Program-made: the position numbers and the translations under genes
The notes under the pieces: model-generated
The model's input: the letters and a program-made list of their open reading frames with translations, nothing else
Database searches by the model: none
Told to the model about the DNA's origin: nothing
Assembly (NCBI GenBank): GCA_963723615.1
Contig: CAVRRV010000020.1
Location: 8,884 to 72,883, forward strand
DNA from: an uncultured Actinomycetota bacterium
GTDB taxonomy: Bacteria; Actinomycetota; Actinomycetes; Mycobacteriales; Mycobacteriaceae
Reading direction: 5' to 3'
DNA: 64,000 nucleotides
Shown here: positions 7,875-28,720 of the stretch, in pieces
Position numbering within the stretch: position 1 is the first letter of the stretch
Layout of the letters: every line of letters starts with the position of its first letter

Positions 7875-7886
7875 TGTCCGTCCTCT

Positions 7887-11236: not shown

Positions 11237-11267
11237 GTCGCTCCTCAATTGTTGGTTTGCTGATCCG

Positions 11268-11360
11268 TTAGTTAAGTAGTGCGCCCGCATCAACGGGGAG
11301 TTGTACGCCTGTGACGTAACAGGATTCGTCGGAGTCGAAGAACAGCACGCCGTCACACAT
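11268..11360 (-). pseudogene. C-terminal remnant of an SDR oxidoreductase (30-aa mini-ORF)
   Basis: Reads MCDGVLFFDSDESCYVTGVQLPVDAGALLN*, matching the SDR tail motif AVLFLxSDxxxYxTGxxLPVDAG. Confidence 0.75.
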
Positions 11361-13705: not shown

Positions 13706-13890
13706 GACAGGCCCAGGAATCGTTTGACGTTGCCGCTGACGATCCGGGCGGCGTCCTGGGGCCCGACCGCGCCGACGACGGCCGACAGTGACTTCTCCGA
13801 GTAGCCGAAGGTGCTTCCGGCGTGGCCGCGGCGGTGCTTGGGCGCGCCGAAACCTCCTGGGGGATACAGGGTATTCGCGTGGGTGGACAT
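13702..13890 (-). pseudogene. Amidohydrolase_2-family gene collapsed in frame to 62 aa (N- and C-termini fused)
   Basis: MSTHANTLYPPGGFGAPKHRRGH joined to STFGYSEKSLSAVVGAVGPQDAARIVSGNVKRFLGLS*; both halves match, from recall, the termini of a roughly 400-aa mycobacterial amidohydrolase. Confidence 0.72.
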
Positions 13891-13902
13891 CGTCGTCCCT
13901 TT

Positions 13903-14070
13903 CTAGAGCAGGCCGGCCAGTTTCAGGTCGTCGAGGTACTTGTTGATGGGCTCTACTGTGACATGCGGTATTTCATGTCCAGAGCGGCGCACTCCGGATC
14001 GGAAGTCCTCGCCGGGCACCGGTGAGCCGGCGGTGGCGGTGGTCAGCGTCAGACCGTCATCGTGGGCCAT
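13903..14070 (-). pseudogene. C-terminal remnant of a carboxylic-acid-reductase/thioester-reductase gene (55-aa mini-ORF)
   Basis: GSPVPGEDFRSGVRRSGHEIPHVTVEPINKYLDDLKLAGLL* resembles the CAR/FadD9 tail (FRAAV...DIPHV...IxKYxxDLxLLGLL*); ATG lies 4 nt after the P450 stop. Confidence 0.65.
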
Positions 14071-14074
14071 CCCG

Positions 14075-15316: not shown

Positions 15317-15365
15317 CGCGCGTTCCCTCGAGTGGACATGATCAGATGTACGGATCGGGTGAAAG

Positions 15366-16040
15366 TCATTGTCGCCTCGGCTTTGGCGCGGAACTGCCCG
15401 CGCGGATTGGGGCCTGCCACACGCCTGTGATCGCGTCGATGAGCCCTTCAGCTGCCAATGGCCATGACGACCGTGCGCGAGGGCCGTGTACTGCCAGGGC
15501 GCCTTCGTGCTCGGCGCACGTATGCATGAGCAGGTTTCGGGCCATCACGATCCGCTCGAAACGGACGCGCTTGGGCAGGTCGGGCATGCACCGAATGATC
15601 CCGTCAATCGTGTGCGCCAACTGTGGAGAGGCCACCGCGTCTTTGGTCACCACGTCCCGATAGTTCGGATCGGCCATGGCCTGTGCGGCAAACCGCGCGT
15701 AGAAGCTGGGAATTCCCAATTCCGCGAGGTGGTCGGTGAGGGGACGCACCAGGGACGCGACCCAGTCGTGAAGTTCGGTGCTGCCGGCGAGCTCAGCGAG
15801 CATCCCCGCCCGCAGCGCCTCGATGGGGGTGCGGTGCTTGCTTTCGATGGCGCGCAGCAGGTCGGTCCTGGTGCCGAAGTGGTAGCACACCGCGGCGTTG
15901 TTTCTCTGTCCGGCCGCATCGCTGATCTGCCGGTTGGATACGGCGTACATGCCCCGCTCGGCGAAGAGCTGTTCAGCAGCTGCCAGCAAGACCTCGCGCG
16001 TGCCCTCGGACCTGTCGCTGCTCAGCGCTACTGCGGTCAC
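15366..16040 (-). CDS. TetR-family regulator
   Basis: TREVLLAAAEQLFAERG...AAVCYHFGTRTDLLRA HTH; GTG 16040 is the likely start. Confidence 0.9.
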   Translation of the reverse strand: MTAVALSSDRSEGTREVLLAAAEQLFAERGMYAVSNRQISDAAGQRNNAAVCYHFGTRTDLLRAIESKHRTPIEALRAGMLAELAGSTELHDWVASLVRPLTDHLAELGIPSFYARFAAQAMADPNYRDVVTKDAVASPQLAHTIDGIIRCMPDLPKRVRFERIVMARNLLMHTCAEHEGALAVHGPRARSSWPLAAEGLIDAITGVWQAPIRAGSSAPKPRRQ

Positions 16041-16066
16041 CGGCTCAGTGAAACATCCTTGAACGG

Positions 16067-16086
16067 AATAAATCAAGCAATTTATT
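16067..16086. promoter_or_regulatory. Palindromic candidate TetR operator
   Basis: AATAAAT-CAAGCA-ATTTATT, a perfect 7-bp inverted repeat just upstream of the TetR start in an AT-rich patch. Confidence 0.5.
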
Positions 16087-16162
16087 TAAGTGGTCGCCGA
16101 CGCTGCAGGAACCTTTCTTAAAGCAGACCTGCGGCTACGCCGCACCGACTGAGGCTCCGCGC

Positions 16163-16193
16163 GCAGGGACCCAGCAGGGACCGGGCAGGGACC
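16163..16193 (+). repeat. Three direct copies of GCAGGGACC at 11-bp period
   Basis: Copies start at 16163, 16174 and 16185. Confidence 0.8.
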
Positions 16194-16361
16194 GGCCACC
16201 AGGCCAGCAAACACCGATTCAGCTGCGCCGCCGCCGACGATTTGGCGATGACCGTTTCTTGGGTCGCGGTGGCGGTATTTACACTGGGAAGTCCGCCTGC
16301 TTGCGAGCTTCACCGACGACTATTTGCGCCTGCTGGCCGTCTGCCATCGCCGCCGTGCCCG

Positions 16362-17177
16362 TCAGTGGTAGCGATTGCCGTCATAGACGATTTCGCCCGT
16401 GGGGCTGACGGTGACGGCTTGCGTTAAGACCTTGACCGTTCCCCGGACCACCACCATCGCCACCGGCACCAACACCGGCTGTTCACCGTCAGCCGTCCAA
16501 TAGGCGTACAGCCGCTCCCCCTTGAACGCTGGTTCATTGATCGGCGGTGTCTCGCCGTCGAATTCGGTCTCTCCTTCACCTGCCACCAGCTCGGGGTGAG
16601 CCATGAGGTGTTCGCCCATCGCGGCCATGTTGAAGGTCTCGGAAGTGACCAGCTGACTGCCGTCGCTTCTGTAGAAGAGGATTTGGCCGTCATCCTGGGC
16701 GACCGCGTGCGCGTTGCGTTCGAGCCATTCCGGCGGGACGTTCGCGCTCACCGACAACATTGCGTCGGTGATGTCCCACGCCGTCACGCCGAGACTCGCG
16801 AGGACCTCGGTGGCGAGGTCGCCGTCGGCCTGGGTGGGCGCGATTGTCTTCATGCCGTAGCTGTTGGCCTTCGCGATTGCTGGGCCGGTGAACCCGCTCG
16901 ACGACACGAGGATCAGCAAGTTGGTCGGTAGACGCTCATGCTTGGAGTGCATCTGCTCGACCCATCCCACACCCTGTTTGCGCTTGTGGTCGCGGCACTC
17001 GATGCCGATGTTGACGGTATGTCCGGCGAAGGTCCCCTCGGCGTAGATGTCGACCTCGCGTGGCTCGCCGGACACCAGGTCGGTGAGCATCTTCGATTCT
17101 TCGACGACGGCGTTGTCGCCCAGGAGCTGAGTCAGCATCCTGATCAGCTTCTGGAAGTCGTTGGTCCGCTTCGGCAT
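16362..17177 (-). CDS. PD-(D/E)xK restriction-endonuclease-like (Mrr_cat-type) protein with uncharacterised C-terminal half
   Basis: REVDI...IECRDHKRK and LVSSSGFTGPAIAKA motifs in the N-terminal 110 aa. Confidence 0.75.
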   Translation of the reverse strand: MPKRTNDFQKLIRMLTQLLGDNAVVEESKMLTDLVSGEPREVDIYAEGTFAGHTVNIGIECRDHKRKQGVGWVEQMHSKHERLPTNLLILVSSSGFTGPAIAKANSYGMKTIAPTQADGDLATEVLASLGVTAWDITDAMLSVSANVPPEWLERNAHAVAQDDGQILFYRSDGSQLVTSETFNMAAMGEHLMAHPELVAGEGETEFDGETPPINEPAFKGERLYAYWTADGEQPVLVPVAMVVVRGTVKVLTQAVTVSPTGEIVYDGNRYH

Positions 17178-17310
17178 ACCAGGTCACGATACGTCGGTGA
17201 TCGTAGCGCGCTACGACACCGCGTCCCGCGCTCAACCGACGTCGCCGGTTGGCGGCGCGCTGGCCTTCTTCCACAGGGTCACGGCACGCACGTGCAGCAT
17301 GACCGCCAGG

Positions 17311-17358
17311 TGGAGCTAAGGGGATTCGAACCCCTGCCCTTCTCGATGCGAACGAGTC
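17311..17358 (-). repeat. Partial tRNA-Ala(CGC) 3' copy (att site 1)
   Basis: 46/48 identity to 28648-28695. Confidence 0.95.
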
Positions 17359-17454
17359 AACTTGGGCGTTTGTAGTTATTGGCAGCGTTGGCCGCAACGT
17401 AAGACTGCACGTCACAAGGTTGGCGACGTTGGCGAGAAGAGACGGTTGTCGAAG

Positions 17455-17476
17455 CTACTGCGGACGCGCTGCGGAC
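17455..17476 (+). repeat. Putative integrase arm-type site pair CTACTGCGGAC-GCG-CTGCGGAC
   Basis: Same motif recurs at 21615 and 28562; about 97 bp from the att core. Confidence 0.7.
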
Positions 17477-17568
17477 TGGAAGGCACCTCGTTCGTCTGGA
17501 GAGAGACCACGTTCTCTTGATCGAGGTCATCCGGATCCACCACGAATTCCCCTGGTGGCCCTTGAGGT

Positions 17569-17934
17569 TCAGACCCTGACGTCGGGAATATCCGAAAGGT
17601 TGTGATGGGTCGCGCGAGGTCCCCCGCCTACGCTGCTCCCAGCGGTAACGACAAGGTTGGTCCCCACCTTGTAGGGAGGTCCGGTGATCGGTTGGACAAA
17701 CGCGGAGTACACGCCTGGCGGCTCATCATAGAGGTACTGCAGGCTATATGGGCTGTCGGACCATGAAGTAGGCGCGACAGTAAGTTGGGGCGCAAACACG
17801 TTGACGCACTCCGACGTCACAGGCGTCACGAACAGGCTCACAGTGATATCTTGGTCGGTCTCGTTGGAGAGGGTGAACTCGATGCCATCGACTGTTCCGA
17901 TCGCAGCCACAAGCATCCCAGGAGGGTCGGACAT
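17569..17934 (-). CDS. Hypothetical beta-rich protein (121 aa)
   Basis: GAAGGAG RBS before ATG 17934; alternating hydrophobic/Thr/Ser pattern; no family recognised. Confidence 0.6.
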   Translation of the reverse strand: MSDPPGMLVAAIGTVDGIEFTLSNETDQDITVSLFVTPVTSECVNVFAPQLTVAPTSWSDSPYSLQYLYDEPPGVYSAFVQPITGPPYKVGTNLVVTAGSSVGGGPRATHHNLSDIPDVRV

Positions 17935-18133
17935 ATCGCTACTCCTTCGATTCGATAACTCGGTCTTGGATTTTCAACGGTCCCGTCGAATTTTGGGGGC
18001 CGCTGGTTACCGTTCAATGGTCAGCGGTAAGAGGCGCAACTGACGCGAGTAGTTGACTACTCGAGTTTTGCGACGTTCACCCGCGCGCCCGAAGGGCGCT
18101 GCGTCGCGATCGGATCGGGGTCACAATTGGACC

Positions 18134-21100
18134 GTGAGCGCACAGCCCACAATCGACGAGCTACTCGACCAGGCGGTTCGCGCTCTCAACCGGGGTGACC
18201 GCCCGACGGCAGACGCGCTAGCAGGCCAGGTGCTACAGGTGGACCGCGGCAACGCCGACGCCGAGGAGTTGCTCGCGGCTCTCACGGACAGCGGCGAGAT
18301 CAGGCGGATGACGATCATATTCGCCGACCTGGTGGATTCGACGGCGCTGTCAACCCGGCTTGAACCGGAGGTCTATCGCACTGTCGTGGGCCGCTACCGC
18401 GACGAAGTGCTGCGAATCGTCGACCGCTACGAAGGTCACGTCGCGTCAACAAAGGGCGACGGGCTATTGGCGGTGTTCGGGCACCCCAAAGCCCACGAGA
18501 ACGACGCGCGCCGCGCGGTGCTGGCGGGACTCGACATCACCCGCGAGGTCAGCACGCTCAGCGAGCGCGTGCGAACACGCTTCGGATTCGACATCAGCGT
18601 CCGAGTCGGCATCCACCGTGGACTTGTCTACCTCGATACAGTCCAAGATGACGTCTATGGATTCGCGGCCAACCTGGCCGCACGGATGTGTAGCCTGGCC
18701 GAGCCCGGAACCGTCGCCGTCTCGAAAACGATTGAACGGCTGGTCAGCAATGCATTCGAACTAGACGCCCTGCCGGCGAAAGCGGTGAAGGGCGTGGACG
18801 GTTTGATCGTCCACTATCGCGCAGTTGCCGAACGCGACATCACAAAGAGCGTGGGTGGACCGCTGGTCGGTCGCGAGCGTGAGGTCGCGTACCTCCAAAG
18901 AAGCTGGGCCGAGGCGACGGCCGGCACGCTGGCGACACGCGGAATCGCATATCGGGGCGAGGGTGGCATAGGCAAGACTCGCCTGGCCCACGCGGCGGTC
19001 GACATTGCTCAGGAGACAGGCGCTCCCGTGCTGGGGTTGTTCGGATCGCCGTTTCACACCGATGTGGGTTTGCGCCCGGTACGGCGGCTGCTGGAACGCC
19101 AGTGCGGAATCAGGCGCGACTCCGATCCGGCGGACCGCCTTCGGAGGCTGCAGGCCGAGGCCATGCAGCGCTCATTGGATCCGGCCGCCGTGGTCCCGCT
19201 GTTGGCGCCCGTCCTCGGCATCGGTCCGGAAAGCGGCTACGAACCCGTCCGCGCCGCTGGCGACAAGCTGTATGAACAGATCGCCAAGGGCATCCATGAT
19301 TACCTGCTGGCGTGTCTCGGAAGCGGACCCGGGCTGGTGCTGGTCGAAGACATGCACTGGTTCGACGAAGACACTATTGAGGTAGTCCAGGCGCTTCTGC
19401 GCGAAGACCTTGGCCGACTGCTCGTCGTCATCACCGGACGCCAGCTCCCATCGTTGGCCGGCAATACACAGGTACTCGAGTTGAAGCCCCTCTGCGACAC
19501 CGAAGCTGACGAGCTCATAATCGCCCTGCATCCTGGGATCGACCCCGAGGCACGAAGGGCGGTGCGACGGCGCTGCGATGGCATGCCCCTCTACATCGAG
19601 GAGGTCGTGGCCAAGCTCAAAGAGCAACCCTCCGATTCGGGGGAATCCGCCGAGGTGCCCGACACGCTGTATGAAATGTTGCTCGCGCGACTGCGATCGA
19701 GCACGAACGCGCTTCTCGTTGTTGAGGCGGCCGCGCTGATCGGCAGCGTCGTCGATGGACGGCTGCTGTCGTCGGTCGTCGGCTTAGACAAGCGTGACGT
19801 CGACGACGTGCTCCAACAACTCACACGCAGCCGCGTGCTCCAGCCGGTGCGTACAGATAGCTGGCGCTTCCACCATGAACTTCTGCGCGAGGTCGCCGCG
19901 GAGCTCTCGCCGCCTAGCCTTCGCCACAGGCTGCACAGCCGCATCGGAGACGCTCTCGTCGCCACGGCGGCCGACGGGACCCCTGAATGGCCGCTCGTCG
20001 CGCACCACTACGAAAAGGCTGAGCGTTTCGACGAGGCAGCTGCGGCCTATCAAAAAGCGTCAGCCAATGCCCGGCAGCGCGGGGCACTCGGCGAAGCGCG
20101 CAACCACCTCACCCGCGCCCTAAAGGACATCGAGCGACTCGCACCAAGTCCGTCGCGTGATCATCGCGAGGTGGCCGTTCGCCTGGAGCGCGGGTTCCTC
20201 GCCTCGGCGGCGACCGGCCACGCAAGCACGAAGGCCGCCGCTGAATTCGAGCGATGCCTGCAGCTCATCGGAGATGAGCCGAGTCTGGAGCTGTACGCGA
20301 CTTTCAGTGCCCTCTGGAGCTACTACGCCACACGTGGCGACCTCCGCCGAGCGACGCAGGTGATGGAGGCGCTGAGGATGAGGCTCGAGGACATGCCGGA
20401 CTGGTACCGCGCGGCTAATGATGCGGCAATCGGCTCGTTGGCAGTGTTCCGCGGCGAATTCCACGCCGCCCGGGCCACGCTGGAGGCAGCCGTGGCTGCA
20501 GTCGATGATCTCGGCTCACCCGAAATCGAAGGAGCCTGGTTCGCGCCCAATGACCCAATCGGGGGGATGTACACGTTTGTCGCGTTCGCCCGGTTCGTTC
20601 AGGGAGATCTGGCCGGCGCAGAGGCCGCCTTCGCGCAGATGGAAAGCCGGTGCGAAAAGCTGCGCTTTCCCCATGGCGCGTTCACTCTTTGTTACGGCCG
20701 AACGATAGAGGCGTTGGTGCGCACCGAAGCCGGCCAACACGACCGCGCGATCGAGCTCCTTGTTGAGGTCGCCGACCGGGGCCACCGGTATGGCTTTGAT
20801 GAATGGGTCATGGTTGCGGCCAGCGGGGAGGCCGCCGCACGTGCGGTCGCCTCGGTGGCCGCCGGCGAGACCGACTCCGCTACTCTGCAATCTCATATCC
20901 AAACCATGACTGCAGTCGTTGAGGCGTGGCGCGCAGCCGACATGAAGGCGTTCCTCGGGTGGTACGACGGTGCATTGGTGCGGGTACTCACGGCCGCCGG
21001 AATGAACGACGCGGCGCTCGAACGGGTTGAGCTCGCGAGACAGATGGCCGATGAGACGGGTTGGCGCTTCTACGACGCTGAGTTGCTGCGCTTGCGGGCT

Positions 21101-21319
21101 CACACATCTGACGACCCGGATGCCCGGCACGCGGATCTTCGGGCGGCCATCGAGCTGGCCCAAACGCAAGGTGCCCTTATCTACGAATTGCGGGCTGCTG
21201 CAGACGATTTCGAACTGATTGGAGAGCCCGCGCGGGCCGCACTGATGGACGCGCTCAGCCGATTTCCATCTGCGCAAACCTGGCCTGAGCTGGCGCGCGT
21301 GCGTGCGCTACTGGGGTGA
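18134..21319 (+). CDS. Class III nucleotide cyclase - STAND/AAA ATPase - TPR-like protein
   Basis: FADLVDST, KGDG, RVGIHRG, DVYGFAANLAARM cyclase motifs; Walker A GEGGIGKT; Walker B LVEDMHW; helical repeats at the C-terminus; GTG 18134 is the likely start. Confidence 0.92.
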   Translation: MSAQPTIDELLDQAVRALNRGDRPTADALAGQVLQVDRGNADAEELLAALTDSGEIRRMTIIFADLVDSTALSTRLEPEVYRTVVGRYRDEVLRIVDRYEGHVASTKGDGLLAVFGHPKAHENDARRAVLAGLDITREVSTLSERVRTRFGFDISVRVGIHRGLVYLDTVQDDVYGFAANLAARMCSLAEPGTVAVSKTIERLVSNAFELDALPAKAVKGVDGLIVHYRAVAERDITKSVGGPLVGREREVAYLQRSWAEATAGTLATRGIAYRGEGGIGKTRLAHAAVDIAQETGAPVLGLFGSPFHTDVGLRPVRRLLERQCGIRRDSDPADRLRRLQAEAMQRSLDPAAVVPLLAPVLGIGPESGYEPVRAAGDKLYEQIAKGIHDYLLACLGSGPGLVLVEDMHWFDEDTIEVVQALLREDLGRLLVVITGRQLPSLAGNTQVLELKPLCDTEADELIIALHPGIDPEARRAVRRRCDGMPLYIEEVVAKLKEQPSDSGESAEVPDTLYEMLLARLRSSTNALLVVEAAALIGSVVDGRLLSSVVGLDKRDVDDVLQQLTRSRVLQPVRTDSWRFHHELLREVAAELSPPSLRHRLHSRIGDALVATAADGTPEWPLVAHHYEKAERFDEAAAAYQKASANARQRGALGEARNHLTRALKDIERLAPSPSRDHREVAVRLERGFLASAATGHASTKAAAEFERCLQLIGDEPSLELYATFSALWSYYATRGDLRRATQVMEALRMRLEDMPDWYRAANDAAIGSLAVFRGEFHAARATLEAAVAAVDDLGSPEIEGAWFAPNDPIGGMYTFVAFARFVQGDLAGAEAAFAQMESRCEKLRFPHGAFTLCYGRTIEALVRTEAGQHDRAIELLVEVADRGHRYGFDEWVMVAASGEAAARAVASVAAGETDSATLQSHIQTMTAVVEAWRAADMKAFLGWYDGALVRVLTAAGMNDAALERVELARQMADETGWRFYDAELLRLRAHTSDDPDARHADLRAAIELAQTQGALIYELRAAADDFELIGEPARAALMDALSRFPSAQTWPELARVRALLG

Positions 21320-21470
21320 GGCGGTTGCGCGGAAGGGTGGCCAACCTCGATGGCGTGTTCGCCGGCGCTGGCGTTTCGATGAGGTGGGGTGGTCTGATTT
21401 TTTTGACGGGGGGACTGGAGGTGCCTCGTCAATCCCTAGAGGGAAACTCCCATCGCGGGCTTTTCACCGG

Positions 21471-21518
21471 TGGAGCTAAGGGGATTCGAACCCCTGACCT
21501 ACTCGATGCGAACGAGAC
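21471..21518 (-). repeat. Partial tRNA-Ala(CGC) 3' copy (att site 2)
   Basis: 47/48 identity to 28648-28695. Confidence 0.95.
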
Positions 21519-21614
21519 AGCATGGGCGTTTGGGCCGGCGGACTGCGTTGGCAGCGTCGGAAAAGCACGGGTCACAGCGTTGAAGCGGTTGGGTGGTTAA
21601 GCCCGTCGTCGAAA

Positions 21615-21636
21615 CTACTGCGGATTGACTGCGGAC
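21615..21636 (+). repeat. Putative integrase arm-type site pair CTACTGCGGAT-TGA-CTGCGGAC
   Basis: About 97 bp right of att copy 2, the same spacing as at att copy 1. Confidence 0.7.
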
Positions 21637-21705
21637 GGGACTCGAAGCTGATCGGGAGGCCATGGGTCCCAGCGCGGCGAGGTTTCGGACAGCCGATCCA
21701 CGCTG

Positions 21706-22353
21706 CTAAGACCGCCCCGCCTGTCCGGGGAGTGCGGTGGAAATGTCGGCAACGGCCAACAGCAGCCCAGCGACAATGTCAGCGAGGTGCTCACGGGTAG
21801 TGTCGAAGTCGCCACGCAGCCAGCCAGCGATAACCTCCATAGCACCGCTGACCAGGGCAAACGCAGCGAGGTCGGTGTCGAGCTGGCTGGCTGCGGCAGG
21901 ACCGAGTGGATCCCTGATCATCGCGGCCATGGCGTTGGATATCGCGCGTGTGCTGTCCACGCGGGCGTGCTGTAAAACCTCGGAGGTGTGGGAGCGCAGG
22001 AGCAACTGGCCACGACGCGGGTCAGCGGTGAGGAATTCAAGTGCGGCATCGGCGGTGGCGCGGACTTGCGCGCGTATGTCGGGCACTGCGCTACTCGTCG
22101 CAGCCTTAACCGCCTGCAACCCCTCGGCGGTAAGGTCACGCACGATCGCTTCGATCAATGCATCCGAATCGGTGAAATGCTCGTAAAAGTAGCGGTCATT
22201 GAGCCGGGCCCGCGCGCACACCGCGCGTTTCGACACTGCTCGTGCGCCGTCCTCTGCGAATAGATCGAGAGCTGCATCGATCAGCGCGACTCGGCGGGTG
22301 GCGCGACGTTCGTCGGCCGTCACGCCACCGTAAGAGCGCGTCGCGATTGCCAT
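21706..22353 (-). CDS. TetR-family regulator
   Basis: RSYGGVTADERRATRRVALIDAALDLF...LNDRYFYEHF; likely ATG at 22353. Confidence 0.9.
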   Translation of the reverse strand: MAIATRSYGGVTADERRATRRVALIDAALDLFAEDGARAVSKRAVCARARLNDRYFYEHFTDSDALIEAIVRDLTAEGLQAVKAATSSAVPDIRAQVRATADAALEFLTADPRRGQLLLRSHTSEVLQHARVDSTRAISNAMAAMIRDPLGPAAASQLDTDLAAFALVSGAMEVIAGWLRGDFDTTREHLADIVAGLLLAVADISTALPGQAGRS

Positions 22354-22393
22354 CAACGGCATTGTGCCTGACACCCCCTTGACCATTCGAGAT

Positions 22394-22445
22394 TTCTGGT
22401 GCAGTCTGACACCACAATAGCTTCTGGTGCAGCCATGCACCAGAA
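22394..22445. promoter_or_regulatory. Two tandem 24-bp palindromic operators between the divergent TetR and oxygenase genes
   Basis: TTCTGGTG-N8-CACCACAA (22394-22417) and TTCTGGTGCA-GCCA-TGCACCAGAA (22422-22445, perfect 10-bp arms). Confidence 0.7.
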
Positions 22446-22466
22446 TTATCTGACAGAAGGATCACC

Positions 22467-23432
22467 ATGTCGGTCCAATCCCTGGACAGGTCGATCGACC
22501 CTCCGCACACGCCGACCGAATCCATATGCACTTCAGTCGAATTTGTCGCAGACCGATTCGAGCGCGTGATGGGATCGCGGTTCCTCGTTCTGTTCGCGCC
22601 TGCCCTCTTCGACGAGATGATGCTGCCAGCGGTGTCGGCGGCACTGGTTGATACGGGCCGGATAAAGAACGACCCCCTCGGGCGCGCGCGACGCACGGCT
22701 GCATCCGATCAACTCACGTTTATGGCCAAGCACGAGGACCGCCGCGAGGAGATGCAGCGGCTGGTGCGGCTGCACCGCGACATCAAAGGCGTTGGACCCG
22801 ACGGGGTTCGCTATAGCGCACTAACCCCCGAGCCTTGGAACTGGAACTTGATCAGTATCTTCTTCATGCATCGTGGTGCTTTCATCGCTCTCAGCGGCGA
22901 AGACCTCAGCGTCGCGGGCAACCAGGCGATCTGGGACCGCTTTCGTGCGCTGACTAAAGACTTGCAGATGCCCGGCCGCGCACGACAACTCCCGGATAGC
23001 TACGAGGAGCTGTGCGCGTACTACGAGAAGATGGCGGTCGAGAAACTCAAACACACCGCGAGCCTTGACACCGTCATGGACGCCACGCTCCGGCCGCGAC
23101 GGCCTGAGTACATGCCTGTTGTCACGGCGCCGCTGTGGAGGCTGCTGGGACCGATCGGCGGACACATTGTGGCGGTCTTGGGTTTCGGCATCATGCACCC
23201 CCGTGTGCGGTCGTTGGTCCCGATGCGCTGGACGCGCCGACATGCCTTGGAGTTCGCCGTGATGACCAGGCTGCTTCGTATTGCTTACCGTTGGTTACCC
23301 CATCGACTCACCGACACGCCCTTGGCGCGCAATGGGTGCGAGTACGAGCGAATCGTCGCCCACTACAAAGGAAGCGGACTGACATCGTTCGCGCCTGGTG
23401 CCACTCAAACGTGTGCTGAGGCCGATGCGTGA
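22467..23432 (+). CDS. Oxygenase MpaB/DUF2236 (Lcp-like) family protein
   Basis: DPLGRARRT, LVRLHRDIKG...RYSALTPE motifs typical of DUF2236. Confidence 0.8.
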   Translation: MSVQSLDRSIDPPHTPTESICTSVEFVADRFERVMGSRFLVLFAPALFDEMMLPAVSAALVDTGRIKNDPLGRARRTAASDQLTFMAKHEDRREEMQRLVRLHRDIKGVGPDGVRYSALTPEPWNWNLISIFFMHRGAFIALSGEDLSVAGNQAIWDRFRALTKDLQMPGRARQLPDSYEELCAYYEKMAVEKLKHTASLDTVMDATLRPRRPEYMPVVTAPLWRLLGPIGGHIVAVLGFGIMHPRVRSLVPMRWTRRHALEFAVMTRLLRIAYRWLPHRLTDTPLARNGCEYERIVAHYKGSGLTSFAPGATQTCAEADA

Positions 23433-23506
23433 TCATGAGCGACCGCACCCGTCCCTACTACCTCCAGGTCGCCGACGAGGAACGAATCATTTGTCAGGAG
23501 TGATCA

Positions 23507-24643
23507 GTGACCACTGAACAAACCACAGCGGCGACCAGACGCGCGGACACGGCGCCGAACCGCTCATCAGCAGGCACGATATGGGCTTGGCTTTTCGCTG
23601 TCCTCGGTATCAGCGCCGTCGTCGCTATCGCATGGAATGCACGCGACTACCCCGACGCGCGGATCGGAAATCCGAACGTGACCGGGGCGCCGCGTCCGGT
23701 CGAGCCACTTTTCGGTTACACCCACTGGCTCGGGACGCTGCAAGTCTTTACGATCATCGCGGTCATCGGCCTCATCGCGGCTTTCGTGTGGGGTTGGCGT
23801 CGTTATGGCCCCCACCCTTACCTGCTCATGGGTCTGGTGACCACCATCATCGTCTGGCAGGACCCGATCATGAATTGGGCGCCATACGCCGTGTACAACC
23901 CCCGGCTGTGGCACTGGCCGGAGTCCTGGCCGCTGGTGTCGCTCTCGCCCACGATCGAACCGTTTGTCGTCATCGGCTATGTGATGTTCCAGTTCGGCCC
24001 GTACTTTCCGGCAGCCTGGGTCCTGCGAAAAATCCAGGCTCGTCGGCCCGTTGATGCGTTCGTGTGGCGCCATCCGCTGAGCAGTCTTGGCGTACTGATA
24101 TTGGTCTTCGGATTCATCATCGACATGATTCTTGAGGTCACGCTGGTGCGCACTGGTATGTACATCTACGCGCAGGTGATCCCGTTCGGATCAATCTTCG
24201 TCGGCACACCGCACCAGTTTCCGTTGCTGTGGGAATCCGTATTGGTCACAGTGGTGATGATTCCGGCGGGGATTCTGGTCTATCGCGACGACACAGGCCG
24301 CACGGTTTCTGAGAAATTGGCCCAACGCGCCCGCATCTTGCGCAGCCGGCCGGCACTGGGCTCGTTTCTGGTCATGCTCGCCATCATTAACGTGGCGTAC
24401 TTGATGTACGGCGCCGCGTTCACGGCCATCAAGTGGTCGAAGGCAGCAACGTCAGTTGCTTGCCCCTGGCCGTATCCGGACGCCAAGGTCTTTGATCCTC
24501 AGGGCTTTTACGAGAAGAACGGCCAAAAGGGCCCGTATTCCGTCGGAATCATGTCCACCTGGATGAGCGGCCAGCCCAACGGGCGTCCGACTGTGCAACT
24601 CGGATCCGTGAGCCAACGTTGCGCGCCGGGCAGCAATGGGTGA
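23507..24643 (+). CDS. AveC-like (spirocyclase family) polytopic membrane protein
   Basis: WQDPIMNWAPYAVYNPRLWHWP, YIYAQVIP, HQFPLLWES motifs; multiple transmembrane segments. Confidence 0.75.
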   Translation: MTTEQTTAATRRADTAPNRSSAGTIWAWLFAVLGISAVVAIAWNARDYPDARIGNPNVTGAPRPVEPLFGYTHWLGTLQVFTIIAVIGLIAAFVWGWRRYGPHPYLLMGLVTTIIVWQDPIMNWAPYAVYNPRLWHWPESWPLVSLSPTIEPFVVIGYVMFQFGPYFPAAWVLRKIQARRPVDAFVWRHPLSSLGVLILVFGFIIDMILEVTLVRTGMYIYAQVIPFGSIFVGTPHQFPLLWESVLVTVVMIPAGILVYRDDTGRTVSEKLAQRARILRSRPALGSFLVMLAIINVAYLMYGAAFTAIKWSKAATSVACPWPYPDAKVFDPQGFYEKNGQKGPYSVGIMSTWMSGQPNGRPTVQLGSVSQRCAPGSNG

Positions 24644-24762
24644 GCCGCGCGGATACGAACCCACATCCAAATTTTCGGGCCTTCGAGCGGCACCTGGAAT
24701 GGAAGTCCGAGCAACTGGTAACCAATTTCATTCACATCCGATGGACTAACGGAGGTTCCTTG

Positions 24763-25179
24763 ATGCCTGACCCTGTCGAAGTTGTTCGCCAGTTCTGCGC
24801 ACTGATGGAGAAGCGCGATCCCGAGGCGTTGCGTCCGTTCCTCGCTAGCGGCGCGGTCTACCAGAACGTCGGGATGCCGGCGTTTACAGGTGTTGAGGCG
24901 ATCTTGGAGAACATGGGGGCGCAGTTTTCGATGTTTCCGGATGCCTACGCGTTTGAGATCTTGAACATCGCCAGCGAAGGCTCTGTGGTTCTGACCGAAC
25001 GGCTTGACTACATCCAAGCCCCTGACGGCACGAAGCCCGCCGTTCCCGTCATGGGGACTTTTGTGCTCGATGAGAGCGGGAAGATCACTCGCTGGACTGA
25101 CTATTTCGACGTGTCTTTGACGGTCAAGCTTCTGCAAGGCGAGGACATTAGCGCATTGGTGCCCGCGGCCTCGACCTAG
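24763..25179 (+). CDS. Limonene-1,2-epoxide hydrolase family protein
   Basis: VYQNVG (Tyr/Asn), TERLDY (Arg/Asp) and WTDYFD (Asp) catalytic positions; GGAGG RBS. Confidence 0.85.
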   Translation: MPDPVEVVRQFCALMEKRDPEALRPFLASGAVYQNVGMPAFTGVEAILENMGAQFSMFPDAYAFEILNIASEGSVVLTERLDYIQAPDGTKPAVPVMGTFVLDESGKITRWTDYFDVSLTVKLLQGEDISALVPAAST

Positions 25180-25307
25180 GCTGCGGTGCCCTCCAGTTGG
25201 GTGGCGCCGTGGCGATTTCAGGTAAGCAGTCTGCGGCCATCTGCTGATTCACGCCCGAACCCCCTAATTATCACGACTGGCACCGCAAGCTGACGTGCTT
25301 TCAGGCG

Positions 25308-25421
25308 TTAGGTGAGCGGCTCAAGTACCCGATAGACGGTTGCCCGGCTGACGCCAAGGGTGGTCGCTATAGTGCTGGCCGACTCGCCGCTGGCGTGCAT
25401 CCGCTGCGCCAGAGCGGCTTT
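25308..25421 (-). pseudogene. C-terminal HTH remnant of a serine resolvase/invertase
   Basis: KAALAQRMHASGESASTIATTLGVSRATVYRVLEPLT*; classic LGVSRATVYR resolvase HTH; 5' part missing. Confidence 0.8.
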
Positions 25422-25430
25422 CGCCGTGTA

Positions 25431-25460
25431 AACCACTGACCTACTCGATGCGAACGAGTC
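25431..25460 (-). repeat. Truncated partial tRNA-Ala copy (att site 3)
   Basis: 29/30 identity to 28666-28695; followed by CACTTGGGCGTTT like copies 1 and 2. Confidence 0.9.
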
Positions 25461-25498
25461 CACTTGGGCGTTTAAAGCATGAGACGGCGTTGTCCGCG

Positions 25499-26104
25499 TC
25501 AGGTGTTTGGTTTGAGCGCCGGCGCGATCCAGCGGCGCAGGTAGGCGCGCAGTTGGGTGCCGGTGCGGGGCGGTTCGGGCGGGGCGATGATCATGGATTG
25601 GATGTTGCGGAGTAGGAATTCGACGAGTTCGTCGATGGCTGCGTCGTCGTAACCCAAAGCGGCCCAGTCGATGCGCGTGTGGCGCAGGATCTTTCGGGCG
25701 CGCGCGATCTGGGGGGGCTGCAGCATCTGGCGGCTGAACAGTGTCATGTGGTCGCTGGCCAGTAGCAGCGTCAGCAGTGGTTCGTTGGGCAGCTCTTCGA
25801 TGATGTGGGCCACCAATTCGACCAGCAGGTCCGTGACGTCGAGCGCGCCCGAGGTGATGGCTTCGATCCGCGGGATCCAGCTGTCCAGCGCGACCTCGGC
25901 GACCGCGGTGAACAGTTCTTCGGTGGTGGCGAAGTAGCGGTAGACGGTTCGACGTGTGATGCCGAGGTCAACGGCGACGTCGGACAGGGTCGTGTGCGCT
26001 GGTCCACGCCGTTCGATGCACACCAGCGCGGCGTCGATAATTTTCTTGCGGGCTTCGGTGTCGTCGGCGGGCGGCGAGCCGTCCCACCCGCGGCGTTTTC
26101 CCAT
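25499..26104 (-). CDS. TetR-family regulator
   Basis: WDGSPPADDTEARKKIIDAA...LGITRRTVYRYF. Confidence 0.92.
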   Translation of the reverse strand: MGKRRGWDGSPPADDTEARKKIIDAALVCIERRGPAHTTLSDVAVDLGITRRTVYRYFATTEELFTAVAEVALDSWIPRIEAITSGALDVTDLLVELVAHIIEELPNEPLLTLLLASDHMTLFSRQMLQPPQIARARKILRHTRIDWAALGYDDAAIDELVEFLLRNIQSMIIAPPEPPRTGTQLRAYLRRWIAPALKPNT

Positions 26105-26205
26105 GATCTCTTGACCTCCGCAGCCGGATGGATTATCTCTTTAGTAAAGATACATGAATCGACAACGTGTATATTGACTGTGGAGTGAGGGGCGGCCAGG
26201 TGACG

Positions 26206-27168
26206 ATGTTGCAGGTGCGACGGGTGCGGTTCGATTTCGAGGACGACGTGCCGTTCGTGTGGAATCCGCAGAACCCGGCGTTCTCGGTGTACATGAACGC
26301 GACATCGATCATCGCGATCGCCTTCGAGAAGTTCATCGTGGCGGCGGTACGCGAGGCGATGCCGAAGATCACCGATACGGAGGCGGCAGCCGAGGCCCAG
26401 GCCTTCCTCCGCCAGGAAGCTCAACACGCGAGTGCTCATCGTCAGCATCTGCGCGCCTTGATCAAGCGCTACCCCGGTTTACAGCAGACACTCGATGACG
26501 CCATCGCGCTCTACGACGAACTCGGCGAGAGCAAGCCCCTGCCGTTCCGGTTGGCCTACATCGCCGATCTGGAGGCCACGTTCACGCCGTTTTTCAAGAT
26601 GATGCTCGACAACGAGGCGATGTTTTTCCGCCCGGGTGATGACCGGATCGCGTCGCTGTTCTTGTGGCATTTCGTCGAAGAAGTCGAGCACCGCAGTTCG
26701 GCGCTTATCGTCTACAACGCGGTTGTCGGCAGCAACGCTTACCGGGTGCGGGCCCTACCTGGGGTCATCAAGCACCTCGTGGGGGTATGGAAGGTCATCG
26801 CCGACGGCTTCGACGCGCATGTGCCGCGCGCGGATCGCCAGATCGACGCACGCCTGCTGCGACCGGTAGCCGGCGCGCGCGAGGCACTGCGCCGCAAATT
26901 GCCGTTCGCCGGTGCCAGCGGGGACCAGTTGCTGCCGATGGCGTTCAATGGTGTTCCAATGCGGCAACGGCTCGCCACCTTCAGGCGGGTCATCTTGAGC
27001 CAGGCGCCGCATCACGATCCTGGCGACCAGCCGCTACCGGAGTTCGCCGCGCGGTGGTTCGCTCGCTACGAGCACGGCGACGACATTTGCCACTGGTATT
27101 GGAGCAGCCGCACCGACTCAGTGCCCGAGGCGCCAAACTCGCCGGCTGCCAACGGTTCCCATGGCTAG
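26206..27168 (+). CDS. Predicted metal-dependent hydrolase (ferritin-like, ExxH pairs)
   Basis: VRRVRFDF, FEKFI, QEAQHASAH, LEATF, EEVEHRS motifs. Confidence 0.82.
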   Translation: MLQVRRVRFDFEDDVPFVWNPQNPAFSVYMNATSIIAIAFEKFIVAAVREAMPKITDTEAAAEAQAFLRQEAQHASAHRQHLRALIKRYPGLQQTLDDAIALYDELGESKPLPFRLAYIADLEATFTPFFKMMLDNEAMFFRPGDDRIASLFLWHFVEEVEHRSSALIVYNAVVGSNAYRVRALPGVIKHLVGVWKVIADGFDAHVPRADRQIDARLLRPVAGAREALRRKLPFAGASGDQLLPMAFNGVPMRQRLATFRRVILSQAPHHDPGDQPLPEFAARWFARYEHGDDICHWYWSSRTDSVPEAPNSPAANGSHG

Positions 27169-28315
27169 CCAGTGCACCCCGACATTCGACACGCTTGCCC
27201 AATCCCTGGGCGGCTTCTCCTGCCGTAACGCGCCGGCGGTAGTGCACTTCCGCAACCCGTTCGACTTGTCGAACTGGACGCTGCCGATTCTGGAAGTCAC
27301 GATGATCGTCGGCGCCGTACTCGCCCTGCTACACGGCATCCGCCGGCTGCGCCGCTACGGGGATCCCACCGTTGTCGTGCTGTGGTTCGCCTCGGTGGTC
27401 TACCTGTTGGTCGCCGAGATACCGCTGTACTTCCCTGACTCATTCGGCATGACCAATCACGTCGGGTTCGTCTTCGCGCACAACGTGTTCACCGTGGAAT
27501 TCCTCTACGACCGGCTGCCGCTCTACATCGTCGCGCTGTATCCCGCGCTGGCCACCCTGGCATTCGAAATCGTGCGCGTGATAGGTGTGTTCCGGCGCCA
27601 GGGCATCCTCGTGGGCGCCGTATGTGTCGGATTCGTGCATCACTGCTTTTATGAGGTCTTCGACCACTTGGGCCCCCAGCTGCGGTGGTGGGCGTGGAAC
27701 AACGACAGCGCGTTCAATCACCCGATGATGGCGTCGGTGCCGATGACCAGCATCGTCTTGTTCGCCGCGATTGGACCGGTCGCGCTGGTGTTTCTTGTTG
27801 AACTGTTCGTCGGCCGCCGCGCCGACCGGGGTGAGCGGCTCAGCAGGGGGGCACTGCTGGTGCGCACCCTGGCCGCGGGGGCGCTCGTGCCGCTCGCGTT
27901 GGGGATCGCGGGCCTTCCGCTGTTGTTGTTCGGCGGCGAGCATCCGAAGGTCACCGCGCAGGCCGTCATCCTGTCGGCCATGCTGGGGGTTGTCGCGATT
28001 GTCGCGGTGCCGACACTCGTGTCGCAATGGCTGCGGGCGCGTCGCGGCGATACCGACCCAGATGTCGCGCCGAGTAATTTCGTCGCAGTCTTCGGCACCC
28101 TGTATCTGGTGGCTCTCGGCGTCCTGTGGGTGACGGCGTTGCCCCGGTACGTAAGCGCCGTTCACGGGATCACCAGCGACGGCACTCCCATCGGAAACGT
28201 GTTCTATGCGGGGGTGTGTTTTGTGGCGGCGGCATTATGCGTCGTGGGGGCGCTCACGGTGGCGGCTCGTCGAAACCACGGACTGTCCGCTGTGCCGGTC
28301 GGCGTTGAGCTTTGA
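27161..28315 (+). CDS. Polytopic membrane protein of unknown function
   Basis: About 9-10 hydrophobic segments with conserved-looking polar motifs (EIPLY, DRLPLY, YEVFDHLGPQLRWW); start overlaps the upstream stop. Confidence 0.8.
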   Translation: MASQCTPTFDTLAQSLGGFSCRNAPAVVHFRNPFDLSNWTLPILEVTMIVGAVLALLHGIRRLRRYGDPTVVVLWFASVVYLLVAEIPLYFPDSFGMTNHVGFVFAHNVFTVEFLYDRLPLYIVALYPALATLAFEIVRVIGVFRRQGILVGAVCVGFVHHCFYEVFDHLGPQLRWWAWNNDSAFNHPMMASVPMTSIVLFAAIGPVALVFLVELFVGRRADRGERLSRGALLVRTLAAGALVPLALGIAGLPLLLFGGEHPKVTAQAVILSAMLGVVAIVAVPTLVSQWLRARRGDTDPDVAPSNFVAVFGTLYLVALGVLWVTALPRYVSAVHGITSDGTPIGNVFYAGVCFVAAALCVVGALTVAARRNHGLSAVPVGVEL

Positions 28316-28402
28316 CGCTTGCACCGACTCGCGCCGGGTCTTTGCAACCACCAACCGGCCACTAGTCACCCGCGCCGCAAGTTCCGTCAGAAGCTCGGAC
28401 AC

Positions 28403-28450
28403 CTAAGCATCCGGCAGGTCGCTCAACGCCCGATAGACGGTAGCGCGGCT
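28403..28450 (-). pseudogene. Last 15 codons of a serine resolvase HTH
   Basis: SRATVYRALSDLPDA*. Confidence 0.65.
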
Positions 28451-28452
28451 TC

Positions 28453-28620
28453 CAGCGGATGCTTGGCCACGCCAAGGCCTCAATGACCTTGGACGTCTAC
28501 GCGGACCTTTTTGATGAGGATCTGGACGGTGTTGCTGACCGCCTGGACACCGCAATCCGGACTACTGCGGACCAACTGCGGACTGGCAACTCCGAGATGA
28601 TGCAGTCAGCTAACAACTAA
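28453..28620 (+). pseudogene. C-terminal remnant of a tyrosine integrase
   Basis: QRMLGHAKASMTLDVYADLFDEDLDGVADRLD...*; Box II LGH...Y motif; ends 27 bp from the tRNA 3' end. Confidence 0.88.
28562..28583 (+). repeat. Putative integrase arm-type site pair CTACTGCGGAC-CAA-CTGCGGAC
   Basis: About 65 bp left of the tRNA/att core, within the integrase tail. Confidence 0.7.
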
Positions 28621-28647
28621 AACTGCACTTAGCTGGTTCAAACTCTG

Positions 28648-28720
28648 TGGAGCTAAGGGGATTCGAACCCCTGACCTACTCGATGCGAACGAGTCGCGCT
28701 ACCAACTGCGCCATAGCCCC
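28648..28720 (-). tRNA. alaV: tRNA-Ala(CGC)
   Basis: GGGGCTA...TAGCTCC acceptor stem with G3:U70, D-arm GCGC/GCGC, anticodon loop TTCGCAT, T-loop TTCGAAT; 73 nt; syntenic next to the Rv0996 homologue. Confidence 0.98.

Follow-up and report, generated by a model that had tools for sequence, protein, structure and literature searches.

The window (the whole stretch of DNA that was analyzed, 64 kb) contained a tRNA-Ala(CGC) gene, the single tRNA found by ARAGORN. The 3′ end of this gene reads CTCCAC-AGAGTTTGA, a flank of the element type, and the CCA is not encoded. Beside the gene lie three islets bounded by direct repeats of its 3′ part, every copy being in the orientation of the tRNA. The features of the locus are as follows:

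17310-17480, plus strand: copy 1, read as the attR end of islet 1; the core (17310-17358) is followed by a P arm that has TGGGCGTTT, GTTGGC repeats and an 8-mer pair (17458-17476)
17359-21469, no strand: islet 1; 121-aa ORF 17569-17934 (minus), adenylate/guanylate cyclase and AAA_16 protein 18053/18230-21319 (plus)
21470-21640, plus strand: copy 2, read as the attR end of composite 2+3; the core (21470-21516/8) is full and is followed by a P arm that has TGGGCGTTT, GTTGGC repeats and an 8-mer pair (21618-21636)
21706-25179, no strand: islet 2 cargo; TetR 21706-22362/22440 (minus), MpaB/Lcp-type oxygenase 22467-23432 (plus), AveC-like 23507-24643 (plus), SnoaL/LEH-like 24763-25179 (plus)
25308-25430, minus strand: tail of a small serine recombinase (resolvase), about 41 last codons, HTH_7; abuts the cut core of copy 3
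25431-25498, plus strand: copy 3; cut core 25431-25460 and a short P arm (TGGGCGTTT, GGCGTTG) without a P-arm 8-mer pair
25491-28345, no strand: islet 3 cargo; TetR 25499-26104 (minus), metal-dependent hydrolase 26167/26206-27168 (plus), DUF7802 protein 27161-28315 (plus)
28403-28450, minus strand: tail of a small serine recombinase, about 16 last codons (ending in SRATVYRALSDLPDA and the stop), joined to the integrase tail through a deletion
about 28444-28620, plus strand: C-terminal tail of a tyrosine integrase (containing LGHAKASMTLDVYADLF), residues about 383-428 of a 433-aa integrase; convergent with the tRNA; contains the P′ arm
28565-28583, plus strand: P′ arm 8-mer pair CTGCGGAC-CAA-CTGCGGAC, candidate arm-type integrase binding sites inside the integrase tail
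28647-28720, minus strand: tRNA-Ala(CGC); its 3′ 49 nt (28647-28695) are read as the attL core

Repeats, cargo and recombinase remnants

Self-BLAST of the region aligned the core of copy 1 (17310-17358) to tRNA positions 28647-28695 at 47/49 identity, that of copy 2 (21470-21516) to 28647-28693 at 47/47, and that of copy 3 (25431-25460) to 28666-28695 at 29/30, close to the 46/48, 47/48 and 29/30 given in an earlier note made from the sequence alone. Start-to-start spacing from copy to copy and on to the tRNA was 4160, 3942 and 3235 nt. In all three partial copies six variable bases were followed by TGGGCGTTT. The 64 kb window contained exactly four occurrences of the 15-mer CTCGATGCGAACGAG, always on the plus strand, against a chance expectation of 0.36; this number was reached in 0 of 100 shuffles. 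The three tRNA-derived copies and their common flank are thus real, on the strength of the self-BLAST, the 15-mer count and the TGGGCGTTT at each copy. A search to the left of 17310 found no more degenerate cores.

The cargo of the three units was mutually unrelated, and Pfam annotated cargo genes and recombinase tails on the islets and nothing else. Islets 2 and 3 each consist of a TetR gene plus an operon, as expected of the self-regulated cassettes proposed earlier; that description does not extend to islet 1, which carries the cyclase/AAA_16 protein (1029-1088 aa). A longer cluster on a chromosome elsewhere includes a part that matches the islet 3 block at about 92% identity. Islet 2 cargo was found in at least five other contexts with differing borders (21675-25362, 22822-25421, 21705-25194 and others), and therefore further processes shuffle these genes too. 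Exact-protein look-ups of the 342-aa flank protein and the cyclase gave no match, probably due to differences in start codon or in a single residue.

The integrase tail adjoining the tRNA comprises 46-56 aa. The earlier note had recognized this tail as what remained of the mobility genes; it is not the sole remnant, and two resolvase-type HTH tails lie in the array as well. An intact integrase, excisionase or transfer gene was absent from the 64 kb window, as was any integrase homologue besides the tail. Elsewhere, intact related integrases adjoin the same tRNA in two loci, one with a neighboring capsid gene (L075) and the other with a neighboring Prim-Pol gene (L008), and many truncated ones were found. 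L075 also has an HTH_17 Xis. This integrase family was 37-40% identical to known actinophage integrases. The nearest relatives of the tail in the window were all tails themselves.

Intact resolvase genes with a res-like site were present in L044, L061, L099, L138, L183 and others; in L099 the intact gene occupies the place of the 25308-25430 tail. In the window the res site and both resolvase catalytic domains are gone and the two C-terminal HTH tails are left. No transposase or terminal inverted repeats were seen with the resolvase module.

Two other classes of element were considered and rejected. An integron was ruled out by the absence of an integron integrase gene and by sites that are tRNA-derived with arms of about 140 nt. 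A prophage remnant was ruled out by the absence of phage structural and replication genes in 17310-28646 and by the att signature, which had 0 matches in IMG/VR.

Architecture of the attachment sites

The att sites consist of the tRNA-derived cores with their long arms. In the P arms the 8-mers form a CTGCGGAC-N3-CTGCGGAC pair at a fixed distance, and the arm-site search accordingly used a 3-nt spacer. This layout was also present in numerous further genomes of mycobacteria and in soil contigs, and the GTTGGC motifs, with TGGGCGTTT 6 nt from the core, were present at second tRNA copies in L001, L004, L007 and L030. Across the window and 12 other loci the position of the 8-mer pair was constant in attR copies (-120, counted from the anticodon stem) and ranged from +96 to +110 past the tRNA on the P′ side; in soil contigs the pair lay at +113 to +119 in 67 of 88 unique P arms. 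Within L004 a variant 8-mer, GTACGCAG, was common to both arms of one islet. P arms in the window were only about 74% identical to one another, and their architecture was common with the sites of other species. The CTGCGGAC pairs by copies 1 and 2 can also be read as further integrase-tail remnants (..TADxLRTG..); this reading was rejected because just the two 8-mers are conserved, with a variable spacer and a core distance that is fixed across species.

Judged by sequence, each of the three tRNA copies belongs, as an attR-type site, to a family of tyrosine-integrase elements. The proposal that they are integrase-type att sites and not a plain duplication holds, the conserved island-side arm architecture matching attR in other species. 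The islets were also said to have intact att ends, and no single islet has both arms. Both islet 1 and islet 2 retain the site pair of the P arm and have lost the P′ arm, and the tRNA-proximal end of islet 1 (21320-21469) contained no integrase or resolvase remnant and no recognizable P′ arm. In islet 3 the P′ pair persists, the core is cut, and the P arm is cut about 40-50 nt from the core and has no P pair. Both arms and cores are complete only in the composites running from the tRNA to copy 2 and from the tRNA to copy 1.

The exchange point was bounded to 21496-21518, i.e., from the variable loop to the anticodon stem-loop, and 68 independent junctions elsewhere placed a fixed end at the variable-loop/T-stem border. 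A crossover near the anticodon loop, as suggested earlier, is not specifically indicated by these bounds. The fixed core end, together with integrase relatives that are all tails, hints at a broad non-autonomous element family.

Copy 3 may have arisen otherwise than by decay of a full attR. Element 3 could have integrated at a secondary site lying inside element 2, within its resolvase gene. Alternatively, the integrase could have recombined the attR core with a pseudo-site there and deleted its own gene in one step; one more deletion would then give the present structure. We hold this to be a possible course of events, short of the probable one. In soil contigs, unrelated DNA started 6-11 nt left of the anticodon stem in 68 of 79 unique P-arm/core flanks, with a CCCY bias just outside the fixed end, and at least 11 of the flanks were 5′-cut resolvase tails, some of them cut where the RGQSIG codons natively read TGACC, a sequence similar to that of the tRNA at the border. 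The same fixed end was seen on the islet 2 arm in L101 and L105. However, copy 3 in the window seems to retain a few extra T-arm bases (AAACCACTGACC vs GAACCCCTGACC), so that the break is not exactly at the common point, and the resolvase break points spread over about 60 codons. Such an origin predicts reciprocal attL-type junctions in which non-tRNA DNA is joined to the T arm and P′ (GGGGTTCGAATCCCCTTAGCTCCACAGAGTTTGA).

Distribution of the array among relatives

All comparison sequences were metagenome assemblies. The 7.2 kb composite of islets 2 and 3 was found at 98-100% identity in at least three species with backbones only about 80-92% identical, and its borders coincided exactly with the att cores. 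In L086 the backbone on both sides was 97-98% identical to L003 and 80-92% identical to the window, with islets 2+3 at 98-100%; identity between L086 and the window broke exactly at 21469 and inside the tRNA. The outer half of the attR in L086 was 100% identical to the T arm of the L003 tRNA and the working tRNA had the T stem of the element, a combination also present in L081. L003, of the same species as L086, had a different islet of 5.1 kb at the site. L087 provided a third backbone with the same composite, and L081 and L092 additional outer flanks of copy 2. In total, copy 2 had four different outer flanks, which differ between genomes. The integrase truncation was identical in all copies of the composite, and divergence along it was uneven, at about 2% in 21.7-23.7 kb and <0.1% beyond. 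The tRNA and about 23 nt upstream were identical between species.

Islet 1 was seen in the species of the window only and was absent beside the composite in other species. Neither islet 2 alone nor islet 3 alone was seen at the tRNA as an att-bounded unit. Independent variation of the islets among relatives, anticipated in the earlier note, thus applies to islet 1. Islets 2 and 3 were joined as one composite in every relative found, and therefore the three successive integrations that had been proposed for this genome lack demonstration.

Logan contigs of four soil runs over the region revealed many alternative flanks at the core edges and no joint spanning islets. No excised circle or empty site from the same population was seen in the public runs, which are at contig level. 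Synteny with 80 loci was judged through clustering of downstream ORFs; a tblastx comparison between these loci and the left part of the window was discarded as high-GC noise showing no synteny.

Origin and movement of the array

Positions 17310-28720 are most probably a tandem array in which decayed integrative elements of the CIME type adjoin the 3′ end of the tRNA-Ala(CGC) gene of an environmental Mycobacterium from soil, with composite 2+3 having moved recently between species, likely via a related helper integrase, and with islet 1 a separate unit. The att architecture, the remnants, the exact borders and the differences among relatives are observed; how the events followed one another, which helper integrase acted and by what route the DNA passed between cells are inferred. 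In the parent elements, a tyrosine integrase gene would have stood by the tRNA and a small number of cargo genes by the P arm, and the elements would also have had a small resolvase with its res site. With every integration a fresh 3′ part of the tRNA would have arrived and the previous one would have been displaced outward, where it stayed as an attR copy; later deletions would have taken the integrase, together with the res site and the bulk of the resolvase, so that cargo between att sites is what was left. The remnants and att architecture agree with the integration and subsequent loss of mobility genes proposed earlier; the integrase is not the only remnant. The ends of composite 2+3 are an attL formed by the tRNA core and the P′ 8-mer pair in the integrase tail, and an attR formed by copy 2 and its full P arm. 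Mobilization of this integrase-less composite between species is suggested by its distribution (at least three diverged backbones, 98-100% identity, exact att borders). The transfer most likely occurred by site-specific recombination with a related integrase from another element, which may have acted in trans, or whose element may have integrated alongside (accretion) before joint excision; the own arms of such a helper integrase would carry GTCCGCAG pairs.

Mycobacteria swap chromosomal segments, and the 2+3 block could in principle have spread by homologous recombination of transferred chromosomal DNA (e.g., distributive conjugal transfer or transformation), with the identical tRNA and upstream bases as homology; the uneven divergence of the block is also consistent with this. 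Yet both borders fall within the 49-nt core, the outer side shares only about 23 nt, and copy 2 has its four different outer flanks. Moreover, the recipient-type outer half of attR and the element-type T stem of the tRNA form the reciprocal pattern expected of integration, and spread by homologous recombination is unlikely. Movement of the units as cassettes driven by the resolvase (composed of res, resolvase, cargo and a tRNA-like end), with tyrosine-integrase features that are incidental, appears more doubtful still. Such cassettes would account for the order of cargo then resolvase gene to the right of the P arm in most longer contigs, for the conserved res-like site of about 190 nt (GTCTCA/TGAGAC inverted repeats) upstream of the resolvase gene, at whose first subsite homology between loci begins, and for the many sites away from any tRNA. 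Resolvases of this type, however, resolve or invert and do not normally integrate, and those found here were only 58-60% identical to ordinary small-plasmid recombinases. The composite spread although the window lacks res and both catalytic domains, and the fixed end lies in the tRNA-like core beside arm-type repeats characteristic of tyrosine integrases. Were the tRNA end simply duplicated as a local segment, with no integrase involved, direct repeats of one orientation at roughly similar spacing would result, as observed. This origin is hardly credible given unrelated cargo, divergent arms of an architecture common to other species, and outer flanks that vary between genomes, and it is already contradicted by the second copies in other loci and by the 8-mer pairs.

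Tyrosine integrase genes by attP and paired arm-type sites on both arms are features of tRNA-integrating actinobacterial elements and temperate actinophages such as mycobacteriophage L5 (tRNA-Gly) and pSAM2 (tRNA-Pro). The family described here is alike in that the attP copy of the tRNA runs from the anticodon stem to the 3′ end and restores the tRNA on integration, in that the integrase gene adjoins attP, and in the pairing of arm-type sites; it differs in the distance of its integrase from actinophage ones, in an att signature absent from IMG/VR, and in a window without phage or transfer genes. Integrons likewise array small promoter-adjacent or self-regulated cassettes between recombination sites on one chromosomal platform, but intI, attI and attC are lacking here, the cores are tRNA-derived with long arms, and the cassettes keep their own recombinase remnants. 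The ssrA-specific islands of Dehalococcoides form tandem arrays, contain repeated ssrA 3′ ends and rely on serine recombinase integrases. These islands, like the present array, hold metabolic cargo integrated at a single small-RNA gene, the target there being the tmRNA gene (PMC3146451).

The array is a tandem of cis-mobilizable-type elements, a kind already known. CIMEs and their tandem accretion were described first from ICESt1/ICESt3-related islands of Streptococcus thermophilus and later from Streptomyces pathogenicity islands, with precedents for the CIME definition, for accretion and for the transfer of CIME-ICE tandems (PMC5704250). As in CIMEs, integration and transfer genes are lost with attL and attR kept (here in composites only), a conserved gene is the target, with units stacked at its 3′ end through site-specific integration, and composites can move as a unit. 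Unlike in CIMEs, the host is an environmental Mycobacterium with tRNA-Ala(CGC) as target, each single islet lacks one arm so that composites alone are complete, the parent includes a res/resolvase module, and mobilization is deduced from distribution. No description of CIME-type behavior in mycobacteria was found in the literature examined.

The locus shows, with exact borders, how small metabolic and regulatory blocks are built and exchanged at one tRNA gene in environmental mycobacteria, and that blocks without any recombinase of their own have crossed species boundaries. Integrative vectors are a main genetic tool in mycobacteria, and the 49-nt core, the P arm of about 140 nt and the paired 8-mers offer concrete sites for the study of trans- and cis-mobilization in these organisms. 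For annotation, short “integrase” ORFs adjoining this tRNA should be read as conserved remnants of an att arm instead of genes. Much more tentatively, and with the greater doubt, soil mycobacteria may harbor a large family of non-autonomous integrative cassettes that consist of two att arms only and are moved by the integrases of other elements, the integrase tail being retained because the P′ sites lie inside it. Pseudo-sites may likewise serve the integrase as partners of the core, and the products would be insertions, or deletions that are one-ended, whose fixed end lies at the variable-loop/T-stem border. If true, elements would through such recombination lose their own recombinase genes and cargo would reach many sites outside tRNA genes, and the cassette family would amount to an integron-like exchange platform on a tRNA-type att site.

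The tRNA-Ala(CGC) array and its recombinase remnants

The single tRNA gene of the window was accompanied by three partial copies of its 3' part, whose coordinates and identities had been given essentially correctly in the earlier note. The 15-mer CTCGATGCGAACGAG, the anticodon stem-loop, occurred four times in the window (0.36 expected; four reached in 0/100 shuffles), and TGGGCGTTT followed all three partial copies after six variable bases. Window G+C was ~64%, and genes were picked by third-position G+C.

Features of the array and its surroundings
14075-15316: P450 gene; left of copy 1, with two M24 peptidases and an 804-aa ORF
15366-16076: TetR gene, left of copy 1
16362-17177: Mrr_cat-like protein, left of copy 1
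17310-17358, tRNA orientation: copy 1 of tRNA 3' part (47/49, self-BLAST)
17359-21469: islet 1; 121-aa ORF and one adenylate/guanylate cyclase + AAA_16 protein of 1029-1088 aa
17458-17476, 21618-21636, 28565-28583: 8-mer pairs
21470-21516, tRNA orientation: copy 2 (47/47, self-BLAST)
Copy 2 to copy 3: islet 2; TetR gene divergent from MpaB/Lcp-like oxygenase, AveC-like protein, SnoaL/LEH-like protein
25308-25430, minus strand: small serine recombinase tail, last ~41 codons (Pfam HTH_7, 1.4e-09), abutting cut copy 3
25431-25460, tRNA orientation: copy 3 (29/30, self-BLAST)
Copy 3 to tRNA: islet 3; TetR gene divergent from metal-dependent hydrolase, DUF7802 protein
28403-28450, minus strand: second serine recombinase tail, last ~16 codons, fused to integrase tail
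28444-28620, plus strand: tyrosine integrase tail, last 46-56 residues (..LGHAKASMTLDVYADLFDEDLD..), adjoining tRNA
28647-28720, minus strand: tRNA-Ala(cgc)
33599-34318, minus strand: GmrSD_C (DUF1524-type nuclease) gene

The integrase tail was borne out but was not the sole mobility remnant, as the earlier note had held: two serine recombinase tails had been missed. The 25308-25430 tail aligned at 88% identity with an intact 202-aa resolvase (residues 161-194). Across the 64 kb window no further integrase or resolvase homologues were found.

Between the TetR and MpaB-like genes of islet 2 (22394-22446) lay two 25-nt repeats; the second, an almost perfect palindrome (TTCTGGTGCA-GCCA-TGCACCAGAA), is a candidate TetR operator of the cassette. 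Large cyclase + AAA_16/NB-ARC (STAND-like) proteins resembling that of islet 1 were repeatedly cargo adjoining such att arms or resolvases in other soil mycobacteria (L099 12546-15722, L155 4801-7797, L228 3863-7036).

Att arms and completeness of the units

The 342-aa protein adjoining the tRNA, used as query, retrieved 80 loci from Mycobacterium genomes and MAGs. The order MoeA, GNAT, 342-aa protein, tRNA-Ala(CGC) was kept in 80/80; beyond the tRNA the DNA differed almost everywhere, and the window's cargo was found in 0/80. Four loci (L001, L004, L007, L030) contained a second copy of the core (the tRNA 3' part) 1.4-5 kb downstream. Their island sides were arranged like the window's three copies, where CAAACGCCCA was separated from the core by 5-6 nt (tRNA orientation) and GCCAAC motifs lay deeper inside. 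The P arm, on the outer (attR) copies, held an 8-mer pair, GTCCGCAG-N3-GTCCGCAG (tRNA orientation), at a fixed -120 from the anticodon stem, and the P' arm, on the tRNA side (attL), held a matching pair at +96 to +110 beyond the tRNA. This placement held in the window and 12 other loci; one islet of L004 had the same 8-mer variant, GTACGCAG, on both arms. In soil metagenomes, the pair fell between +113 and +119 in 67/88 unique P arms. Arm-type sites of tyrosine integrases (e.g., phage L5) are paired direct repeats on both arms at a fixed distance. The 8-mer pairs are candidate arm-type sites that the integrase would bind, and the three copies belong to a single element family as its attR sites.

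The P' pair sits within the integrase tail, which is why the tail survives. Its best 120 homologues in a 5.8-billion-protein collection were all fragments of 44-98 aa, beginning at projected residues 310-390 of a 433-aa integrase. Intact relatives adjoined this tRNA in L008, together with a cI-type repressor and Prim-Pol, and in L075, where the neighbours were an HTH_17 excisionase-type protein and a capsid gene; truncated relatives were present at many other loci. Identity of the integrase to actinophage integrases was 37-40%, and the att signature had no match in IMG/VR.

Among the species of L001-L080, the tRNA 3' end read CTCCAC-AGAGTTTGA (element-type flank, no encoded CCA) in 27/73 and CTCCACCA in others; about a third of the species thus have a tRNA 3' end supplied by an element.

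Islets 1 and 2 kept the full P arm; toward the tRNA they ended without a P' arm. Islet 3 kept P', its attR core lacked the outer 19 nt, and its P arm ended ~40-50 nt from the core, at the start of the TetR gene. The idea that single islets have intact att ends therefore fails, each being short of an arm or core part; core and both arms occurred only in the composites that reach from the tRNA as far as copy 2 (7.2 kb; composite 2+3) or copy 1 (11.4 kb).

Variation among relatives and spread of the composite

Islets in other assemblies were traced by exact-protein look-ups. Two (L082, L091) matched the window at 99.96%. The backbone of L086 was that of another species, L003 (98% identity across 7.3 kb on the flank beside the tRNA and 97.4% across 1.3 kb on the opposite flank), and just 80-92% identical to the window, while islets 2+3 were 98-100% identical; the match broke off precisely where copy 2 ends on its outer side, at 21469. 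With its T arm TGGGGTTCGATTCCCCA and its CACCA end, the outer attR half of L086 and L081 matched the L003 working tRNA at 100%. L086 itself has a working tRNA with the T stem of the element (AGGGG/CCCCT), flanked by AGAGTTTGA. This reciprocal pattern bounds the exchange to 21496-21518 and is the signature of site-specific integration. L003 contained a different islet (5.1 kb) at the same place. A third backbone (L087; 85% to L003, about 78-92% to the window) carried the same composite, and L092 contained islet 2 with another outer flank (P450, Kup, MgtE). Islet 1 was absent from L086, L081, L003, L087 and L092; independent variation in presence among relatives thus held for islet 1 versus islets 2+3. 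The integrase truncation was identical in all copies of the composite, which therefore spread in integrase-less form. Chimerism is unlikely, because L003-type backbone flanked L086 on both sides; judging from contig names, the relatives' assemblies would be long-read.

Of 50 differences between L081 and the window, 40 lay in a 2-kb stretch of islet 2 around TetR/MpaB (21737-23737), as against 4 across the other 4.9 kb of the composite, a distribution that suggests recombination inside it. In several long-read assemblies (e.g., L086 6322-7343, L087, L227) gene calling broke the 342-aa flank protein (GlpR, PF28211, in precomputed Pfam annotation) into two or more parts, probably through frameshift errors rather than as real pseudogenes.

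Left of copy 1, ~3700-17309 was likewise non-syntenic with relatives. In L009, L016 and L081 backbone genes matching 648-3686 lay only a few kb from the tRNA, with the ECH gene (window 10265-11356) on their far side, so the variable region may span ~25 kb and include older islets that have lost their att copies. On the conserved side, the window-L086 alignment was interrupted at 33602-34283, where L086 has a YkuD-type gene; this swap with GmrSD_C is another small replacement. One Logan contig (runs X2/X3) spanned 16500-21500, taking in islet 1 plus the T-arm portion of copy 2, and ran on into CTGCAATGCCATTGCAG.., an anticodon arm of tRNA-Ala(GGC) type; others diverged at 21419 and 21456. The joint is either an assembly artefact at the 31-nt shared T arm or a sign that islet 1 also lies at another tRNA-Ala gene.

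The array combines tandem att sites of one family with recombinase remnants and is complete only as composites; successive integration and deletion would have built it. Plain duplication of the tRNA end, which would make the copies independent of any integrase, is excluded by the unrelated cargo of the units and by an arm architecture common across species, and the integrase origin proposed in the earlier note stands. Movement driven by a resolvase, of which two tails remain, is unlikely because the window has neither res nor either catalytic domain. Had the composite spread by homologous recombination, outer-side crossovers would have to fall in the 23-49 nt core, and the reciprocal T-arm pattern is no prediction of that process. 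Islet 1 varies independently of islets 2+3, the att borders are exact, and a recipient-type attR half occurs in another species. The composite may have been mobilised by the integrase of another element, in trans or via accretion and joint excision, with the helper then precisely lost, and would have passed between cells by some route. Accretion, joint excision and precise helper loss have been described for cis-mobilizable elements (CIMEs; PMC5704250).

The defining features of an integron, a prophage remnant or a transposon are each lacking from the array. Functionally and structurally the locus is of a known kind, a CIME-type tandem array at a tRNA gene; the searchable literature yielded no account of one at mycobacterial tRNA-Ala(CGC). 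The fixed-end junctions and the all-tails integrase family could be new.

Proposed parent element and fixed-end junctions

Islet 3 cargo (25491-28345) matched, at ~92% identity, a portion of a longer chromosomal gene cluster in L095/L096 (TetR, hydrolase, DUF7802, 343-aa protein, FAD monooxygenase, DUF3556) with no tRNA nearby. Islet 2 cargo, with an identical SnoaL-like protein, occurred in at least five further contexts with differing borders; in L099 it was followed by an intact resolvase where the window has the 25308-25430 tail. In longer soil contigs the P arm was followed on its right by cargo of 1.5-8 kb, next to which stood a resolvase gene directed toward it, and upstream of this gene was a conserved ~190-nt res-like region with GTCTCA/TGAGAC inverted repeats. 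From this order, the parent looks like a small element of tRNA core, P', integrase, res, resolvase, cargo and P arm. Recombinases of small mycobacterial plasmids shared 58-60% identity with the resolvase.

A metagenome scan with CTCGATGCGAACGAG-N6-TGGGCGTTT returned 120 sites with 79 unique outer flanks. Eleven of the 79 had the full tRNA 3' part, mostly with a P'-type flank next, and are therefore joints of tandem elements. In the other 68, unrelated DNA started 6-11 nt outside the anticodon stem (between ..CCCY and GACCTA); at least 11 of these were 5'-cut resolvase tails, some with the cut at a TGACC native to the RGQSIG codons and similar to the tRNA sequence of that border. The islet 2 arm had the same fixed end in L101 and L105, and the window's copy 3 seems to have its break displaced outward by a few bases. 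The constant end, joined to varying partners, suggests cutting by the integrase at this point and occasional recombination with pseudo-sites. If so, the outcome would be insertion at non-tRNA sites, or one-ended deletion in which the integrase itself is lost.
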